The notes beneath the pieces were generated by a model. That model made no database searches and had not been told where the DNA came from. It worked only from the letters and a program-made list of their open reading frames with translations. A program made the position numbers and the translations under genes. Below, in pieces: positions 7,873-45,143 of a DNA stretch of 64,000 bases (the first letter of the stretch is position 1; each line of letters begins with the position of its first letter). The stretch is taken from contig SVDZ01000011.1 in the NCBI GenBank assembly GCA_015057625.1, forward strand, positions 30,644 to 94,643, in the 5' to 3' direction. Origin of the DNA: Lachnospiraceae bacterium (GTDB lineage: Bacteria; Bacillota; Clostridia; Lachnospirales; Lachnospiraceae).

Positions 7873-8709
7873 TTATGCAATTATCATATTAGTGATTCTT
7901 TGCACAACTTCAACCACTTCTTTATATTGAACTTTTCCTACATAATAGTTTTTGCTAGTATAATTATTCCACAACTCTTCCAATATACTACTATCTGATA
8001 TATTTTTTAATTCCTCTAGAATCTTTTTATCTGTAAATTCTGTTCCACGGCGCACGCAAGTTGCCTTAAATGCTTCTTTTAAAACATCTACTGAAAAACC
8101 AATTTCTTTTTCCAACTTATAAATATCATAAAAGTCTCTCATTCTCGTATTTGCTGTTCCACGACTAATGATAGTCTGTGTTTTTTCAGCAAGTGTTGTT
8201 TCAATATTATATGTATTGAGCAATATACTTCTGTCTTCAAACATTAATTTGTATTCATACTCTATTGCAGACGTAGTAATTTTATCATTAGTAGAAATAT
8301 CAATCTTAACTGGTTGTCTTAGTTTTTCAAGAGTTGCCTCCATATTAATTCTAAGACCCGGGTATTCAAAGTCATCCATAATATTATCAATTTTAACAAC
8401 TTTGAAAACAATATTATCCTCTAATTCAATATTGCATATTTCATCTAAAACCTCCAACATATATTCCTTTGTAAGCGGCAAAGATTCTACTGTTGTATCG
8501 ATATCCATCGTTGATCTCAAATCAATTCCTAAAAGAGAGGAAACAAGCATCCCTCCCTTCAAAATAAAATTATCTCTGTATTTTGACAATGAAACTCTTT
8601 CCATAAATCTTTCCATAAAATAAATCCTAATATATGATTTTGCAATCCTATCATTTCCCTTTGACACATTTCGAATTTTCGCCTTCAGCTGAATAGCTGT
8701 ACTTATCAT
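7873..8709 (-). CDS. AbiEii/AbiGii-family nucleotidyltransferase toxin (type IV TA)
   Basis: FILKGGMLVSSLLGIDLRSTMDIDTT (GG plus DxD nucleotidyltransferase signature). A 4-nt overlap links it to the upstream AbiEi-like gene. Confidence 0.85.
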   Translation of the reverse strand: MISTAIQLKAKIRNVSKGNDRIAKSYIRIYFMERFMERVSLSKYRDNFILKGGMLVSSLLGIDLRSTMDIDTTVESLPLTKEYMLEVLDEICNIELEDNIVFKVVKIDNIMDDFEYPGLRINMEATLEKLRQPVKIDISTNDKITTSAIEYEYKLMFEDRSILLNTYNIETTLAEKTQTIISRGTANTRMRDFYDIYKLEKEIGFSVDVLKEAFKATCVRRGTEFTDKKILEELKNISDSSILEELWNNYTSKNYYVGKVQYKEVVEVVQRITNMIIA

Positions 8710-9299
8710 ACCAGTACCTCCACATACTTCTTCATTTCATCTTCAATTTTCAACAATTTTGCATACCTCATCAATTTGGATAGTTCTCTATCCTTGTCTC
8801 TCAAATAGCTTACAAGCGCAGTTTGATAATTCTGAACTTCAGTTTTTTTTCTATTTTTTACAAGGTCACAAATGCATCTTTCCCGATCATAACACCTGAT
8901 TTTATTTCCAAAATTAGTTTCAATTTCAACAATTCCCAAATTATATGTTTCCTCTTTCTCTTGATGAATTTCAACACCTTTTTTCCGTAATCTGCTTCCA
9001 CTAAAACCTCTGGGAACACTAACATAAATTTTGTTACATTCACGATCAATCAACTGATGCAAATACAATGCTGTCTCTCCTGAAAAAATAATATTGGGAT
9101 AACATCTTTGCATAATAAATAGTTCATCTTCCCATGTATCCTCTGAAATATAGATTCCTTTAGCCACTCTCTCAAAATTATTTGAATGGACATATTCTGC
9201 TAAATATGTTCTGGAAATATGTTCCTTTTCCACATCAGATACAAATAAATATCCGTTATTCTTTTCTGTCATTTTATCTAATAATTCTTTTTTATTCAT
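8706..9299 (-). CDS. AbiEi-family antitoxin / transcriptional regulator
   Basis: GYLFVSDVEKEHISRTYLAEYVHSNNFERVAKGIYI is typical of AbiEi_4. The start is placed at MNKKELL (9299); the ORF stays open to 9368. Confidence 0.8.
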   Translation of the reverse strand: MNKKELLDKMTEKNNGYLFVSDVEKEHISRTYLAEYVHSNNFERVAKGIYISEDTWEDELFIMQRCYPNIIFSGETALYLHQLIDRECNKIYVSVPRGFSGSRLRKKGVEIHQEKEETYNLGIVEIETNFGNKIRCYDRERCICDLVKNRKKTEVQNYQTALVSYLRDKDRELSKLMRYAKLLKIEDEMKKYVEVLV

Positions 9300-9425
9300 A
9301 GTAATCACCCACTTTACATTCGTGCTATTATTTAAGATTATATTAGCACCATCGTTAAGTCGTGTCAATTATTTTTATTTTTAAAAAACACTTAGCCCAA
9401 TAGACATATGAGCGGTTGCTTGTTT

Positions 9426-9482
9426 TGCAAGATACGCGCTTGTAATACAACGCTGCTTGTTAGGAAGTATCCTAAGACCTCT
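9426..9482 (+). repeat. Conserved structured motif, copy 1 (TGCAAGATACGC - variable hairpin - CTTGTTAGGA-loop-TCCTAAGACCT)
   Basis: Shares its 5' and 3' blocks with copies at 39415-39471 (minus) and 41997-42055 (plus). The central hairpin differs in sequence but keeps its pairing. Confidence 0.6.
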
Positions 9483-38746: not shown

Positions 38747-38818
<72 letters not shown>

Positions 38819-39081: not shown

Positions 39082-39384
39082 TCATATTTTGTTATATATC
39101 AACCAGTCTTCCACCGAACAACCATTTATTGCACAAACAATTATTTCATTCCATCTTTCTTTAATTGATTTACCATCATAGATTGGTGCTTCAAGCATTT
39201 CCTTAGCTGTTTTAAATTCGCAACCATCTTTTATATCACAAAGTCCAACCCAATAAGGTTTTTCATACTCCGGTAAAAACCCTATATAATGTTCTGTTTC
39301 TTTTGGATCAGATTTGAAATAAAAAACTGTTTCATCACAGTTTTCTGCTTTTTCAAAAATACTTAATAATTCTTCGTATTTCAT
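39082..39384 (-). CDS. Hypothetical 100-aa protein (small acidic, immunity-protein-like)
   Basis: ORF with RBS GGAGAG, immediately preceded by motif copy 2. No recognisable catalytic motif. Confidence 0.55.
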   Translation of the reverse strand: MKYEELLSIFEKAENCDETVFYFKSDPKETEHYIGFLPEYEKPYWVGLCDIKDGCEFKTAKEMLEAPIYDGKSIKERWNEIIVCAINGCSVEDWLIYNKI

Positions 39385-39414: not shown

Positions 39415-39471
39415 AGGTTTTAGGATTATCCTAACAAGAATGCATTTGTGGCCACAGATGCGTATCTTGCA
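39415..39471 (-). repeat. Conserved structured motif, copy 2 (minus orientation)
   Basis: Reverse complement reads TGCAAGATACGC ATCTGTGGCCACAAATGCA TT CTTGTTAGGATAATCCTAAAACCT. Confidence 0.6.
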
Positions 39472-39659
39472 ATACAGTACACACAGTTCAATGATACTAC
39501 CTCCTATGATTACTTTCAGACTGGACATCAAATTATTATTATCACTCTATTCTGAAATGAATAAAATCATTTCCTCATATGCATATTACATAATCACCAT
39601 ATCCCGTCTTAAATATACCATCTTGAAGACATACTGCAACGACACGTTTGAGAAGAAAG

Positions 39660-39980
39660 TTATAGCTCCGTATACTTATCAGCCTTTCCTTTAGCTTTTT
39701 CCACTGGGTACTTCTTCTCATTCTGTTCCATTTTCATATTAACTATTTCATCTGCATCCAATTCAAGTTTATCCAATAAATTTTGACTATATACAATAAC
39801 ATCTGCCAATTCCTCTTTGATATGTTGGATATCATATTTTTCTTCTGACCACTGGAAACATTCTAATAATTCAGCTGCTTCAATCACTATTGATTTGGCC
39901 AAGTTAGCAGGTGAATGGAATTGATCCCATTCTCTATCTTCTGTAAATTTTCTAATTCTATCTATTGTTTCTCGTTTCAT
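39660..39980 (-). CDS. MazG-like all-alpha nucleoside triphosphate pyrophosphohydrolase
   Basis: REWDQFHSP.NLAKSIVIEAAELLECFQW and EELADVIVY metal-binding motifs. The start lies 3 nt after the helicase stop. Confidence 0.8.
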   Translation of the reverse strand: MKRETIDRIRKFTEDREWDQFHSPANLAKSIVIEAAELLECFQWSEEKYDIQHIKEELADVIVYSQNLLDKLELDADEIVNMKMEQNEKKYPVEKAKGKADKYTEL

Positions 39981-39983
39981 TTT

Positions 39984-41780
39984 TTATCTCTCCAATGTTA
40001 CATCATTCGCAATTGCAATATATTTTTTTAAATATTCTCTAAGCCTACGATTGCAGGCATATACATAACACCCTTTAATACCTCTTGCTAGAATGGTGGT
40101 ATATGTATTCAATATTAATTCTTTAAGAACTTTTTCATCTGTTCCAGCTTTAACCTTTTTATCTTTGTACTTTGATAAGTCAATTACAATGGAATCACTC
40201 TCCTCATCATAGTCTATCTCTTCACCAAAAATAACTCCAACATAGTTCATATCGTACCCCTGTGTAGTATGAATACAACCAATAGTACAATGCGAGTCTT
40301 TTCTAGTTATCCATGATTCATTAGTAAGATTCCAAATATACTTATGCTTTTCAATTAAAATGTCATATTCTCCGTCCTTAACCAACATATCATAACATTC
40401 CATATTGTCTTTAGGTTTCTTAGCTTGCTTTGTTTTCCAATCCCATGAAAAACCTGCAACAGTTTTAGACAAACCGACTTCATCATCTTTTTTTCTTACC
40501 GTATTAACCAACTTATCTACGTCGTCAAAAATCAAAAAATCATAATTTTCAATTTTTTCTCTTTTCTTTCGACTGCAAGTCATAATATCTTTGACATACT
40601 GAATATAAGTATCTCCACCCTCACAACGCATCTGTGTTTCGAGCTTGTGCTCTTTTATATTTGTTCCATACTTTTCTAAAGTATTATTAAACTCAATATT
40701 TGTAATATCTGATGATTTGACACTTTGATTTTTATCATAAAACAAAACAACATGTTTCGCAGATTTTAATACCCACTCTAACTGATTACTATTTTCTGGT
40801 TCAAGACCTAATGCTCTACATGTTTTATCAAAAGAACTGTACCCAGTTAGATTTTTTCTTTTTGATAATCTGTGTGATTCATCCACGAACAAAATATCAT
40901 AGTCATCCTTTATCACATCATTAGGACCAATAACCATTTCCCTAACAAGACCATTTCCGCATTCTTTAAACACATTGGAAACTGTATTTCTTATTCCTGG
41001 CATCGGAAATACAAATCCTATTTTAAATGGTTTGCCATTGCGCTCGGTTACAATATATTCCTTTAATCTTTTTAGTGCAAAACGCTTATTATCTTCAATA
41101 TCATCTTCTAATTCGTCTTGTATATCCAAAATATCATCTTCAACATTCATTGCATTCACCAACGAATTTATTAAACTGATTGCCAGTACGGTCTTACCGG
41201 TTCCTGCACAACCATCCACCAAACTTACACAACTACTTTTAGTATTTTCGAATGTATCCAAAATATCATTAAGCACTTCTATGCTCACTTTGTTCTGTTC
41301 ACCAGTCAAAGCATTATAAGGAGAAAACTTAAAAATATTATCATTTTCTATTATATCAATAGATTTTTTTGCAAGTCCCTTATCTCTTAAATCTTTCCAT
41401 AGCGTCCTGAAATCACTTCTGTATTTTTTTCTTTGATAATAATCGTGAGAGGCTTGTTGTCCTTTATTTCGATTAATTATATTTTTAAACCTTTTATCAA
41501 CTGAACAATATTTTATAAGTCTCTGTTCATAATCTAAAACTACAGACTTATTAAACTCACCATTAAAAACAATCTCTACAACTTTTAAATTTCTTTTTTC
41601 TTCGTTACTTAAGTGTTGCTTCATTCTTCGAGCTGCACTTGTAGTTTCGCCTACATATAAACTTTCATCATCATGTATTAGATATACAACCGGCCAGTCA
41701 TTTCCTTTTTCGGACATTTCGACAGTTTTTATCCCCTCTTCATTAAATGGATATGAGCGAATCTCATTCAATATTGCCAT
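39984..41780 (-). CDS. GIY-YIG-like nuclease domain fused to a DUF2075/SF1 (Schlafen-type) P-loop helicase
   Basis: VVYLIHDDESLYVGETTSAARRMKQHL (GIY-YIG), DGCAGTGKTVLA (Walker A), ILFVDESHRL (Walker B), IHTTQGYDMNYVGVIF (SF1 C-terminal motif). Confidence 0.8.
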   Translation of the reverse strand: MAILNEIRSYPFNEEGIKTVEMSEKGNDWPVVYLIHDDESLYVGETTSAARRMKQHLSNEEKRNLKVVEIVFNGEFNKSVVLDYEQRLIKYCSVDKRFKNIINRNKGQQASHDYYQRKKYRSDFRTLWKDLRDKGLAKKSIDIIENDNIFKFSPYNALTGEQNKVSIEVLNDILDTFENTKSSCVSLVDGCAGTGKTVLAISLINSLVNAMNVEDDILDIQDELEDDIEDNKRFALKRLKEYIVTERNGKPFKIGFVFPMPGIRNTVSNVFKECGNGLVREMVIGPNDVIKDDYDILFVDESHRLSKRKNLTGYSSFDKTCRALGLEPENSNQLEWVLKSAKHVVLFYDKNQSVKSSDITNIEFNNTLEKYGTNIKEHKLETQMRCEGGDTYIQYVKDIMTCSRKKREKIENYDFLIFDDVDKLVNTVRKKDDEVGLSKTVAGFSWDWKTKQAKKPKDNMECYDMLVKDGEYDILIEKHKYIWNLTNESWITRKDSHCTIGCIHTTQGYDMNYVGVIFGEEIDYDEESDSIVIDLSKYKDKKVKAGTDEKVLKELILNTYTTILARGIKGCYVYACNRRLREYLKKYIAIANDVTLER

Positions 41781-41996
41781 ACCTTAAACCTCTCTTACCG
41801 CACAAAAATATAATATAATTATATTAATAATCACTAACTCTTTCAAGCATACTACAGCGTATCTCAAGCATTTTTCTGCAAAAATCATATATTATCATAA
41901 CAGTTTAAAACTGCTTTCGATTTACTTAAACCAAAAAGATTTTTTTAACCCTTTTGCGCATGCTTTTTCTTTCTAAAATTTGTGTTTAGTGTCTAC

Positions 41997-42055
41997 TGCA
42001 AGATACGCCTTTGTATATACAATGCAAACTTGTTAGGAAGTATCCTAAGACCTCT
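41997..42055 (+). repeat. Conserved structured motif, copy 3
   Basis: TGCAAGATACGC CTTTGTATATACAATGCAAA CTTGTTAGGAAGTATCCTAAGACCTCT. Confidence 0.6.
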
Positions 42056-42185
42056 GCTTATCTAATGACATCATGTCCACAAGTTGGCTAATGTCATCAT
42101 GTCACCAAAATATAGTATCACATAAAAAAGTATGCTATCATAGAGAAAGATTGTAAATGAAAAATCGGAACCGAAGGAGCAAAAT

Positions 42186-42596
42186 ATGTACAAAATTGAA
42201 ACGGATAAATTCATACTGGATCTATCTCCGGAAATCTATAAACAAGACCAGTCATATCCTGTAAATGTAAATCTAGGTGTTAAGGTTTTTAGTTATGGCT
42301 TTTCAGCCGAAATATTTATGGAAGTTGGCGTTAAGGAAATTGCGGAATTTTCTGATGAAATTATGAATCTTTATAACACACTGACAGGGGTGGCGAGATT
42401 GGAAGAACCATATGGTTTTCATAATTACATAGAGTTCATTGCACAAAAAGGCGGACATATAAAAGTAAAAGGAAGATTAAACAATGCATGCGCTTATGGA
42501 TATGAGCAAGAAATTAATTTTGAAAATGAGATTGACCAGACTTGCATAAGAAACTTTAGCAATCAATTATTTTCTAATTTCAGCAAATATATTTAA
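42186..42596 (+). CDS. Hypothetical 136-aa protein (immunity-protein-like)
   Basis: ORF with RBS AAGGAG. No motif recognised. Confidence 0.55.
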   Translation: MYKIETDKFILDLSPEIYKQDQSYPVNVNLGVKVFSYGFSAEIFMEVGVKEIAEFSDEIMNLYNTLTGVARLEEPYGFHNYIEFIAQKGGHIKVKGRLNNACAYGYEQEINFENEIDQTCIRNFSNQLFSNFSKYI

Positions 42597-42617
42597 TACT
42601 GTTTTAAGAGGTATGTT

Positions 42618-42941
42618 ATGGAAAAATACAGATTTAAATATTGGTTTGAATGGGGTTGCACAGAAGATAGATGTCCTTGCTTGTGGTCTGATAACGACGC
42701 TGCAAGAGAACGCTTTGGCTACAGCGTTGATTTAAACGCGTTACCAATCTCCCAAGAATTAATTAGTTTTCTTTTTACCATTGGTATGGAACATGATAAA
42801 GCACTGGACTGGGATTATCCATCTAATCCCAGTCTATGGTCACCAGAAGAAGAACAATCCTTTTTAAAAAGAGCAAATGAAGGTTATTTACGTCTCCAGC
42901 AGGAGCTGGGAAGTAATTACGAAATAGAATTTTGCATATAA
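42618..42941 (+). CDS. Hypothetical 107-aa protein
   Basis: ORF 21 nt downstream of the previous gene. W- and C-rich N-terminus. Confidence 0.55.
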   Translation: MEKYRFKYWFEWGCTEDRCPCLWSDNDAARERFGYSVDLNALPISQELISFLFTIGMEHDKALDWDYPSNPSLWSPEEEQSFLKRANEGYLRLQQELGSNYEIEFCI

Positions 42942-43003
42942 TAATTTCAAATCTCAAATGAAGTCAGGATCTGATATAATACTTTTTATTTAATCTTTTT
43001 CTT

Positions 43004-43435
43004 CTACATTTGTTCTATTTTTTCTTCACTAATTTTGATATCCAAATCCGCTCTCTGATTCTTCACCGCAATTTGAAAATCATCTTCATAAATAATTTCT
43101 CCGGGAATTTCTTCTATCTCCGATCTATACAGCTTCACATCATACTTTGCAAGCATCTTTCGATAAAACGTCATCTGCTCATAAATGTCGTTTCCAGCCT
43201 TTGTATCTTTAAACCATGTAATCGCTCTGTCCGGATTACCCTGCTCATAAAATGGTGGAACCGGAAGTACTTTTTCAAAATATTCTCTGTTCCTCCGATA
43301 TTCTGCAATCTCTTCTTCATTCATAATCTTTGCATCAACCAATTTCCCCACCGCAGTAAAAATTCCTCTTGGTTGCTTGGTAAGATAAGCAATGTCACCT
43401 GTGTGAATTCTGTAATATTTCATATTTTCTCTCAT
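43004..43435 (-). CDS. Hypothetical protein (about 140 aa)
   Basis: ORF with an alternative start at 43423 (MKYYRIH). No motif recognised. Confidence 0.5.
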   Translation of the reverse strand: MRENMKYYRIHTGDIAYLTKQPRGIFTAVGKLVDAKIMNEEEIAEYRRNREYFEKVLPVPPFYEQGNPDRAITWFKDTKAGNDIYEQMTFYRKMLAKYDVKLYRSEIEEIPGEIIYEDDFQIAVKNQRADLDIKISEEKIEQM

Positions 43436-43835
43436 TTATATTTACCTCACTTTCCACCTACATGGCAGTTCTCTGAAAAATGTGTTTCATTCAATCTTCT
43501 GAATACTCTTTGTCTTTATATTCCACATCATATCACACTTTTTCCCCATACACTACCAACCGCTAGTATACCTTTCATCTATCTACTCTCCATTCATTCC
43601 ATAAATAGCTCCTAAACAAAAAAACGCCAATTGTCAAACTATTTACAGAGGTTATCTGCACCATTTTTGATGTATCATTCAAGTATGAATGGGAGATTTT
43701 GGGAAAACTCAGAAAATAGTAAATTAAAACATAAAGAGCAAGCACGTCGATTATTGTGCTTACTCTTTATGTTATTTCATCGTATATTTGCATTTAGGAT
43801 AGTTGGGGCACCCATAAATTTTCCTTCCCTAATTA

Positions 43836-44189
43836 TCAACCACACACTGTATATTTAATACTCTTTGCAACAATATACATATCATTTCCAATATCTGTGT
43901 TTGATATTTTAAAAATAGTATTTCCTTTAGTCACTTTATACTCCATATTTATTTCATAAGCTTTTTTACCATCAACTATAGAAATGAAATTTCCATCTCC
44001 CTCATAACTAAATTTCAAGTCACATATTATTGCAAATGGATTTTCAAACGTTATTTTAATTTTTTCCTCTCCCATTTCATCAAGGAATCCTACAATTTCT
44101 AGGAAGCCTCCATTAATACTATAAATTTCAAAATCCATCCACAGTTCTTTATTCAAATATTCATTTATATCATTTATTATTTTTTTCAC
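43836..44189 (-). CDS. Hypothetical 117-aa protein (immunity-protein-like), GTG start
   Basis: RBS AGGAGG lies 6 nt before the GTG at 44189. Confidence 0.5.
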   Translation of the reverse strand: MKKIINDINEYLNKELWMDFEIYSINGGFLEIVGFLDEMGEEKIKITFENPFAIICDLKFSYEGDGNFISIVDGKKAYEINMEYKVTKGNTIFKISNTDIGNDMYIVAKSIKYTVCG

Positions 44190-44325
44190 TTATTTCCTCC
44201 TAATCAAGTGGAATATGCGTCACTATAGCACCAGTTTCGTTGAAATTAGGATTTTTAGTTGAACGATGCACCATTTTTTTTGTATATCATTCAAGTGTAA
44301 ATTTTCTTACCCCACCTTCACTTTA

Positions 44326-44822
44326 CAATATATTGTTTTGGGCATGCGTACCATAATCAATTTTTAAATCTGATACGTACACGCTTTGCAATATATTATT
44401 TTGGGCATGCGTACCATAATCAATTTTCAAATCTGATACGTACACACTTTGCAATATATTGTTTTGGGCATGCGTACCATAATCAATTTTTAAATCTGAT
44501 ACGTACACGCTTTGCAATATATTATTTTGGGCATACGTACCACAATCATTTTTTAAATCTGATACGTACATGCTTTGCAATATATTGTTTTGGGCATGCG
44601 TACCATAATCAATTTTTAAATCTGATACGTACATTCTTTGCAATATATTGTTTTGGGCATGCGTACCACAATCATTTTTTAAATCTGATACGTACACACT
44701 TTGCAATATATTGTTTTGGGCATACGTACCAAAATCATTTTTTAACTCTGATACGTACACGCTTTGCAATATATTGTTTTGGGCATGCGTACCAAAATCA
44801 TTTTTTAAATCTGATACGTACT
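44326..44822. repeat. Tandem direct repeat, 63-bp unit x about 8
   Basis: Unit is CAATATATTGTTTTGGGCATGCGTACCATAATCAATTTTTAAATCTGATACGTACACGCTTTG. Units start at 44326, 44389, 44452, 44515, 44578, 44641, 44704 and 44767. A few variable positions recur between units. Confidence 0.9.
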
Positions 44823-45143
44823 ACACAGCATCCGATGCGTCCGCCCAAAAACTATACATTTTGAAACGGTCTCTAATCTACAAGTTTTGGGTTGAACGAT
44901 GCACCATTTTGTATCATTCAAGTATTGCATCTTGTATCAGCAAAAAGAGCAAGCACTATATCTTGATTTTCGCAACAATATTTATTCGCCCTTTGATTAT
45001 ATCATAATGTGACAATTAGCCCAGCTGTTTTTTCCTGATAATCTAATTCGCCTGTTACCATATAATTATTTCTATACTGTTTTTCAGTTAGTCTGAGCAA
45101 TCTTACCATACCTGTTTTTTGCATTTCTCCCTCAACATTATAC

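Follow-up and report, generated by a model that had tools for sequence, protein, structure and literature searches.

Two adjacent genes on contig SVDZ01000011.1 of a Lachnospiraceae bacterium (GenBank assembly GCA_015057625.1) raise the question of why a nuclease-helicase should be coupled to a small nucleotide pyrophosphohydrolase. The genes lie at positions 39660-41780 of a 64,000-nt stretch of this contig (hereafter the window), and a first-pass annotation had suggested that they form an uncharacterized anti-phage module. Our analysis leads us to favour, with modest confidence, the view that the pair is a self-contained, horizontally mobile two-gene cassette engaged in conflict with phages or other mobile genetic elements. 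As a candidate defence module the pair is supported, but not proven, by comparative genomics; the anti-phage function itself is a prediction.

The larger gene (39984-41780, minus strand) encodes a fusion of a GIY-YIG nuclease and a superfamily 1B (SF1B) helicase of 598 residues; a metagenome-assembled genome (MAG) of Lachnospiraceae contains the same protein (100% identity), annotated as 'DUF2075 domain-containing protein'. The smaller gene (39660-39980, minus strand) encodes a 106-residue MazG-like protein. The open reading frame (ORF) positions and peptides that had been quoted for the locus are all present in the sequence, and Pfam confirmed the three domain assignments (GIY-YIG, DUF2075-type helicase and MazG). 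Between the helicase stop codon (TAA, 39986-39984) and the start codon of the MazG gene (ATG, 39980-39978) lie the three nucleotides AAA, in agreement with the 3-nt gap originally described. Since a Shine-Dalgarno sequence, GGAGAG (39988-39993, minus strand, read directly from the sequence), lies within the final helicase codons, the proposed translational coupling of the two genes is plausible. The best promoter-like site of the region, TTGAAA-17-TATAAT (41818-41846, minus strand), is located 38 nt 5' of the helicase ATG and is recognized by its consensus match alone (11 of 12 positions).

In the 598-residue protein, the Pfam family SLFN-g3_helicase (formerly DUF2075, PF09848) covers residues 184-576 (40053-41231, minus strand) with an E-value of 7e-61, and GIY-YIG (PF01541) covers residues 32-90 (41511-41687, minus strand) with an E-value of 1.5e-5. 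The score of the latter, 25.6 bits, is barely over the curated threshold of 22.6. The nuclease assignment is nevertheless backed by residue conservation across a set of 60 homologues (36-99% identity). The GIY and YIG motifs correspond to VVY (31-33) and YVG (42-44), and residues Y33, Y42, G44, E45, R52, H56, N77 and E85 are retained in at least 95% of the set and are also invariant in alignment A2, as expected for a member of this superfamily. The helicase motifs are equally well kept: Walker A (GCAGTGKT, 190-197), Walker B (DESHRL, 300-305) and motif VI (RGIKGCYVY, 566-574) are invariant or nearly so, and these three, together with TQMRC and HTTQGYD, are found in at least 95% of the homologues. 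With Walker A, Walker B and an arginine-finger motif VI in place, the protein is predicted to be an SF1 helicase. The best folds in the Protein Data Bank (PDB) for its AlphaFold model (mean confidence, pLDDT, 76) were RecD, human SLFN14, Sen1, IGHMBP2, nsp13 and RecD2; these are generic SF1B matches, with low template-modelling (TM) scores of 0.2-0.3 in the global search. No modification-reading domain was detectable in the window helicase.

The 106-residue protein matches the Pfam family MazG-like (PF12643) with an E-value of 5e-16 and 59.3 bits, against a cut-off of 27. Sequence searches of the PDB retrieved an archaeal pyrophosphatase (4qgp, 1e-19) and mouse and human dCTP pyrophosphatase 1 (DCTPP1, also known as RS21-C6; 1e-16). 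In 65 partner sequences the metal site EXXE...EXXD (E34, E37, E40, E57 and D60) is conserved at 98-100%, with E34, E37, E57 and D60 invariant. The partners also conserve W18, H22, W44, K83, Y91, P92, K102 and Y103, and the DCTPP1-like motifs FH..NL and FQW and the KY.EL tail are kept at 94-98%. On the basis of profile and metal site, the protein is assigned to the MazG-like all-alpha nucleoside triphosphate (NTP) pyrophosphohydrolases. Judged by their conserved residues, the nuclease, the ATPase and the pyrophosphatase all look active.

A pattern-limited scan covering 185,579 species, each represented by a single genome, identified 149 stretches encoding relatives and returned 80 loci. These come from Lachnospiraceae, Ruminococcaceae, Bacteroidales, Mollicutes, Gammaproteobacteria, Patescibacteria and Methanomassiliicoccales. 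When the presence of MazG was scored by tblastn with the window's own MazG protein, a homologue was found near the helicase in 73 of the 80 loci (68 of 71 among those with a GIY-YIG-type helicase), and the loci span Bacillota, Bacteroidota, Mollicutes, Proteobacteria, Patescibacteria and the archaeal Methanomassiliicoccales. The MazG gene is directly adjacent and on the same strand in 69 loci, downstream of the helicase in 36 and upstream in 33, and lies on the opposite strand in four. Intergenic gaps are 2-42 nt in both gene orders. Conservation of the MazG neighbour, which had been proposed as a check, therefore extends across phyla despite repeated switches in gene order. Even within a single helicase clade (at least 60% identity) the order changes, MazG being upstream in six cases and downstream in 16, and the pairwise identities of helicase and MazG show a moderate correlation (Spearman rho = 0.38). 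That the pairing outlasts rearrangement and reshuffling of partners argues that selection acts on the pairing itself.

Clustering of all flanking ORFs showed that the helicase and MazG genes alone are conserved across loci. The runner-up among the neighbour clusters was found in five loci, and since nothing else recurs more often than this, the pair appears to be a self-contained two-gene cassette. A third conserved gene was considered and rejected on the same grounds; the ORF next to the pair in the window (39082-39384) is just 80% conserved in a second locus of the same species (L001) and absent elsewhere. The pair is also present in relatives of about 30% identity on megaplasmids of the Bacillus cereus group, where neighbouring genes are annotated as 'nucleotide pyrophosphohydrolase' and 'DUF2075 domain-containing protein', and in Microcystis phage Mwe-JY31. 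Inspection of 12 longer family representatives revealed no MazG-helicase fusions.

Several variants of this arrangement were observed. A second subfamily of DUF2075 helicases, of about 618 residues, has no GIY-YIG domain, matches the PADLOC candidate PDC-S41 at its N-terminus and likewise occurs beside a MazG-like gene (L063 52-3944; L069 5914-9480; L083 3889-6095; also L073, L074, L075 and L080). In an Algoriphagus genome (L063), MazG, the GIY-YIG helicase and the 618-residue helicase form a contiguous trio on one strand; the two helicases of L069 are arranged in the same way, with an upstream tblastn match to MazG that was not separated from a 208-residue ORF. On the Paenibacillus plasmid pY5S7-1 (L082 4522-7581), a protein annotated in the deposited record as DUF3578 precedes the GIY-YIG helicase in the slot usually taken by an upstream MazG gene. 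Finally, a 161-nt direct repeat (96% identity; L013 69-228 and 2554-2713) surrounds the pair on a 3.3-kb MAG contig and may reflect either a small circular element or an artefact of assembly; flanking repeats were not found as a general trait of the pair loci.

The wider distribution of the family is sparse and patchy across the domains of life. It is common in gut and rumen microbiomes. The library of representatives at 50% identity contains 351 clusters at an E-value of 1e-30 or below, and one cluster has 856 members. Among 233 immediate neighbours, the recurrent families were AAA_14/DUF4143 (PADLOC PDC-S01; 11 occurrences), NUDIX (six), HNH_4 (five) and DUF3427 (three), and type IV methyl-directed restriction, PbeA, AbiD, SoFic, type I restriction-modification and Cas1 genes were also encountered. 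At the locus of representative P0027, from the abundant gut lineage with 856 member sequences, the pair lies between a Fic gene and insertion sequence elements, with a PLD-SNF2-DUF3427 enzyme and a NUDIX gene upstream, and ArdC and a SMODS/S_4TM cyclic-oligonucleotide-based anti-phage signalling system (CBASS) downstream. These neighbourhoods point to conflict systems rather than to housekeeping. The prediction that the pair would be found in defence islands is thus borne out in so far as known and candidate defence genes repeatedly lie near it.

One neighbourhood deserves particular mention. The run of PLD-SNF2-DUF3427 enzyme, NUDIX gene and MazG/helicase pair is contiguous in three loci belonging to Bacillota, Mollicutes and Bacteroidota (L007 2134-7788; L041 835-6102; L051 2339-7716), with MazG preceding the helicase in L007 and L051 and following it in L041. 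In a fourth (L216 832-10800), the DUF3427 and NUDIX genes are about 4.5 kb upstream of the pair and separated from it by transporter, TnpV and Fic genes. The DUF3427-NUDIX genes followed by the MazG-helicase genes constitute two successive pairs, each of a nuclease-motor and an NTP pyrophosphohydrolase. SauUSI recognizes modified cytosine through its DUF3427 domain, enzymes carrying this domain restrict phages with 5-hydroxymethylcytosine in their DNA, and such enzymes have been reported beside DUF2075 NTPases. The SauUSI-like enzymes resemble the window protein in combining a nuclease with a motor and in having a small NTP pyrophosphohydrolase (NUDIX) of their own; they differ in that the nuclease is of the PLD type, the motor belongs to superfamily 2 and a DUF3427 reader domain is present.

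Additional domains were observed in some relatives. Several of the 150 best family representatives carry about 150 extra C-terminal residues, and all five extended members tested (P0123, P0126, P0146, P0168 and P0224) have a LexA-like Peptidase_S24 domain there; L072 and L075 are listed with the members bearing this domain. In P0191 and P0167 the additions are an N-terminal HSDR_N or a C-terminal XRE-type helix-turn-helix (HTH) domain. Such extensions suggest that some relatives are regulated by RecA and single-stranded DNA or by DNA binding, and sensor or regulator extensions of this sort are typical of conflict systems.

An origin of the module as a phage gene was rejected: no relatives were found in IMG/VR, INPHARED gave four weak matches and PHROG has no family for the helicase. 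Phage collections are all but devoid of the module.

We next compared the pair with known systems. Nhi (SERP2475) of Staphylococcus epidermidis, a PD-(D/E)XK nuclease joined to DUF2075, is an experimentally supported single-gene defence (Bari et al., 2022), and a Nhi-like protein provides a second experimentally supported single-gene DUF2075 nuclease-helicase defence (Millman et al., 2022). AbiO, an abortive-infection protein of Lactococcus with experimental support as a defence and also the product of a single gene, combines a PD-(D/E)XK nuclease with an SLFN-g3-type SF1B helicase, is plasmid-associated and is toxic at high copy number. The window protein shares with Nhi and the Nhi-like protein the fusion of an N-terminal nuclease to a DUF2075/Schlafen-group-3 SF1B helicase and a mobile, plasmid- or island-borne setting, and with AbiO the same combination of nuclease and helicase and the association with plasmids. 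It differs from Nhi and AbiO in that its nuclease is GIY-YIG and in that its clade has a conserved MazG-like partner, whereas both of those systems consist of a single gene. Relatives sharing 30-37% identity with the window protein (encoded by plasmids of Bacillus and Paenibacillus and by an Algoriphagus genome) give weak, partial matches to the Nhi model on the helicase core, with E-values of 1e-8 to 1e-14, and the AbiO model likewise matches relatives weakly and partially on the core.

The helicase of the mammalian group III Schlafen proteins (SLFN5/11/13/14) has PF09848 in common with the window protein, and SLFN14 is among the top structural matches; the helicase domain of SLFN11 binds single-stranded DNA and controls a nuclease. 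Unlike these proteins, the window protein lacks a Schlafen (AlbA_2) tRNase domain, its nuclease being GIY-YIG, and the TM-scores are low, as given above. Similarly, the likeness of the partner to DCTPP1 and 4QGP extends over the whole set of motifs (E-values of 1e-16 to 1e-19), whereas DCTPP1 is a stand-alone house-cleaning enzyme and the window's MazG gene is locked to that of a nuclease-helicase. Defences that deplete deoxynucleoside triphosphates (dNTPs) by means of a dCTP deaminase or a dGTPase likewise place nucleotide-pool enzymes in a defence setting. The folds of these enzymes are unrelated to MazG. Recent work lists MazG as a predicted, unvalidated defence domain, in systems with a MazG-C kinase, NMAD and UDG (DefensePredictor, 2026), and rare PUA-MazG-HAD variants of PUA-Calcineurin-CE-HAD are also predicted. 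None of the predicted MazG systems pairs MazG with a DUF2075 helicase, and we rejected the DefensePredictor systems as the identity of the pair in view of their different makeup.

The pairing had not been recognized as a named system, and this also stood. No paper linking a DUF2075 or Schlafen helicase domain (or Nhi-like proteins) with MazG was found in the searchable literature, the NCBIfam search returned nothing specific, and PADLOC yielded weak partial matches to PDC-S14 alone; identity with a named defence system was rejected accordingly. Membership of PDC-S14 itself, a model of about 300 residues, was also rejected: the matches join residues 5-113 to about 90 of 280-320 model positions (E-values of 2e-6 to 4e-3), no match is full-length and the GIY-YIG-like domain alone is in common.

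By analogy with Nhi and AbiO, we envisage that the ATP-driven SF1B motor would load on foreign or replicating phage DNA and that the N-terminal GIY-YIG endonuclease would cut the DNA so loaded. The partner would most likely convert dCTP-type or non-canonical, modified dNTPs to the monophosphate and pyrophosphate, as its homology to DCTPP1 and the parallel DUF3427-NUDIX pairing suggest. This might starve phage DNA synthesis, especially of the modified bases that shield phage DNA, or it might prevent modified nucleotides that have been salvaged from being built into host DNA. The DNA target, the substrate of the pyrophosphatase and the formation of a complex by the two proteins are all putative in this scheme.

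A more specific version holds that the partner is dedicated to modified or non-canonical dNTPs, such as 5-methyl- and 5-hydroxymethyl-dCTP, hydroxymethyl-dUTP or dUTP. Shielding nucleotides would then be stripped from the pool while the GIY-YIG helicase destroys unprotected DNA, or salvaged ones would be barred from the host chromosome, which a nuclease-helicase directed at modifications would then spare. We regard this version as doubtful, and if true, it would explain the recurrent DUF3427 restriction enzymes and NUDIX genes among the neighbours.

The immediate surroundings of the pair bear on its mobility. The block of orphan ORFs in which it lies varies between strains. A tRNA-Gly(GCC) gene (38747-38818, plus strand), outside the module, marks the border between this variable region and core genes (pyruvate kinase and PnuC/NadR), and contigs reached via the flanking pyruvate kinase contain the island or else end at the tRNA. 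The arrangement shared by several metagenome assemblies is pyruvate kinase, PnuC/NadR, tRNA-Gly, a 100-residue ORF, MazG, the helicase, a WapI-like gene, orphan ORFs and an S8 peptidase. The proximity to tRNA-Gly reported by the first-pass annotation is therefore real, but incidental and local to the species: a tRNA or tmRNA gene is within 6 kb in just seven of 60 loci, and we rejected a tRNA-targeted island as a general trait of the module. No integrase was found in the 64-kb window.

In the second locus of the same species, L001, the cassette is 98% identical and set in a different context. The block of 98% identity (window positions 39646-42077) runs from just inside the left copy of a 57-nt motif flanking the pair to about 23 nt past the right copy; beyond it, one neighbouring segment is 80% identical and the opposite flank is unrelated. 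Because the motif copies coincide with the ends of the shared block, the repeats appear to mark the edges of an exchanged cassette.

In the window, the left copy of this motif (approximately 39415-39475, plus strand) lies between the MazG gene and ORF 39082-39384, the right copy (approximately 41993-42054, minus strand) precedes the helicase gene by about 210 nt and is inverted with respect to the left, and a third copy is found at 9426-9481 (minus strand). The 12-mer core was observed three times against 0.17 expected, and no matches would be expected for the 26-mer pattern. The two flanking copies had been described as outward-facing. They are indeed real, inverted and flanking, but the GCGTATCTTGCA ends of both face inwards to the gene pair, and the designation depends on the strand read, the inward side being that of the mobilization genes in other contigs.

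A metagenome scan located the motif in at least 120 gut and rumen contigs (L096-L215). Over about 60 nt it comprises two hairpins with covarying stems: hairpin 1 has the form TTAGGR..YCCTAA, and hairpin 2, a variable stem of 5-7 bp, is present in 52 of 61 unique copies. RNAalifold on a MAFFT alignment missed hairpin 2 because of alignment gaps, and each sequence was instead folded separately. The GCGTATCTTGCA that follows the hairpins is invariant, but is fixed by the search pattern itself. A NikA/MobC-like gene lies a median of 49 nt downstream of the motif (24 loci) and a MobA/VirD2 relaxase gene (PF03432) about 1.3 kb downstream (37 loci); RadC, DUF5688 and HTH genes lie upstream. Given the hairpins and the position before NikA/MobC and relaxase genes, the motif is probably an origin of transfer (oriT). 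It has the hairpins, the nick-like core and the downstream accessory and relaxase genes of origins in PF03432 elements, from which nicking is predicted. We take its core to resemble the RP4-type nick region. A riboswitch or other known RNA was rejected (no Rfam 15 match at gathering or permissive thresholds), and PLSDB plasmids gave no match to the motif. Since tblastn detected no homologues of relaxase, MobC, RadC or DUF5688 in the window, the three copies there are orphans. The motif was found in L001 alone among 83 loci of the pair and its relatives, and we therefore rejected it as a general part of the module.

Other features of the window are recorded here as side observations. The third motif copy directly precedes a type IV toxin-antitoxin/abortive-infection pair (7873-9368, minus strand) of an AbiEi-like protein (220 residues) and AbiEii (278 residues, Pfam E-value 4e-41). 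In L001 an AbiEii fragment of 99.5% identity lies about 2.3 kb from the helicase cassette, which suggests that strains differ by rearrangement or exchange of defence cassettes. The small ORFs of 100, 107, 143 and 117 residues in 39082-39384 and 42186-44189 have no Pfam, NCBIfam or PADLOC matches, in keeping with the orphan block that had been noted, except that 42186-42596 encodes a WapI-like polymorphic-toxin immunity protein (Pfam E-value 1e-10); the run of orphan ORFs around the pair may be an array of orphan immunity genes. Further along, a tandem array (44258-44884) with a period of 63 nt extends for about 630 nt, or roughly ten units (measured by seven overlapping 249-nt windows at 72-100% identity), and can be read on the minus strand as an ORF of 21-residue repeats (44323-44769).

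Several observations weigh against a defensive role. The enrichment of defence genes is qualitative, being drawn from family counts without a genome-background control, and many neighbours of the pair are ordinary metabolic genes. The window protein itself gives nothing at an E-value of 0.01 or below with the PADLOC models for Nhi (PDLC02372) and AbiO (PDLC02350), and the weak PDC-S14 matches fall on its GIY-YIG part. MazG is missing beside some homologues (P0116, L029, L076-L079 and on a Paenibacillus plasmid), and the assignment of dCTP or modified dCTP as substrate of the predicted pyrophosphatase relies solely on homology to DCTPP1. A defence phenotype is predicted for the clade, and the combination of GIY-YIG, a helicase, an S24 peptidase and sanitation of the nucleotide pool also makes sense as a set of DNA-repair tools.

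This last possibility can be formulated as a mobile module for DNA repair and nucleotide sanitation, in which MazG would remove damaged or non-canonical dNTPs and the GIY-YIG helicase, as a UvrC-like nuclease with its own motor, would excise those already incorporated. DCTPP1-type enzymes are house-cleaning enzymes by homology, GIY-YIG is the nuclease fold of UvrC, NUDIX genes recur nearby and several loci lie amid metabolic genes. The S24 fusions of several family representatives, LexA/UmuD-like in character, would place some relatives under SOS-type control, comparable to the plasmid-borne umuDC and mucAB cassettes. What argues against repair is the pattern of occurrence: the distribution in the species scan is patchy and crosses domains, synteny is limited to the pair itself, and in the window the region is strain-variable and the cassette exchanged. 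Moreover, Abi, type IV restriction, PDC-S01, Fic and CBASS genes repeatedly adjoin the pair, and the nearest characterized DUF2075 nuclease-helicases are defence proteins. Repair as the primary function is in our estimation unlikely.

The same low likelihood attaches to a toxin-antitoxin-like addiction or abortive pair, in which the nuclease-helicase would be the toxin and MazG would neutralize or regulate it, for instance through hydrolysis of a toxin-activating nucleotide. Such a cassette would stabilize the mobile DNA that carries it, and any protection against phages would arise through abortive infection. The tight coupling of the genes in both orders, their presence on megaplasmids, the toxicity of AbiO, the AbiE-type and other toxin-antitoxin genes near the cassette and the oriT-like remnants of mobile elements that flank it would all fit this scheme. 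However, the 65 pyrophosphatase partners keep their catalytic site, which sets them apart from typical proteic antitoxins, MazG is missing beside some helicases, and the operon has no DNA-binding autoregulator.

A role in DNA processing for conjugative or mobilizable elements, with the GIY-YIG helicase as an unusual relaxase or helicase acting at the flanking oriT-like sites, is very improbable: TraI-type relaxases do carry SF1B helicase domains, and in the window and L001 the pair fills the slot downstream of the motif that NikA/MobC and relaxase genes hold elsewhere, but the other 82 loci lack the motif, flanking repeats are not general, relaxase, MobC and other transfer genes neither accompany the pair nor occur in the window, and the conserved partner is a pyrophosphatase rather than a transfer protein.

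We therefore return to the conflict cassette as the reading we favour. How nuclease-DUF2075 helicases, established as single-protein phage defences (Nhi, AbiO and the Nhi-like protein), recognize their targets is still poorly understood. What would be new in the clade described here is that GIY-YIG replaces the PD-(D/E)XK nuclease and that, in archaea as in many bacterial phyla, the helicase gene rarely occurs without the gene for a DCTPP1-type dNTP pyrophosphatase. With two small genes and clear predictions for point mutants, the system is experimentally tractable. Both components have mammalian counterparts, in the group III Schlafen proteins (antiviral restriction) and DCTPP1 (nucleotide sanitation), and should the doubtful specificity for modified dNTPs prove true, the cassette would exemplify a general design of nuclease-motor plus dNTP sanitizer, in common with the mammalian Schlafen helicases and DCTPP1. 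If the pair is defensive, it would be the first system to join direct attack on DNA by a Schlafen-type helicase to enzymatic editing of the dNTP pool.

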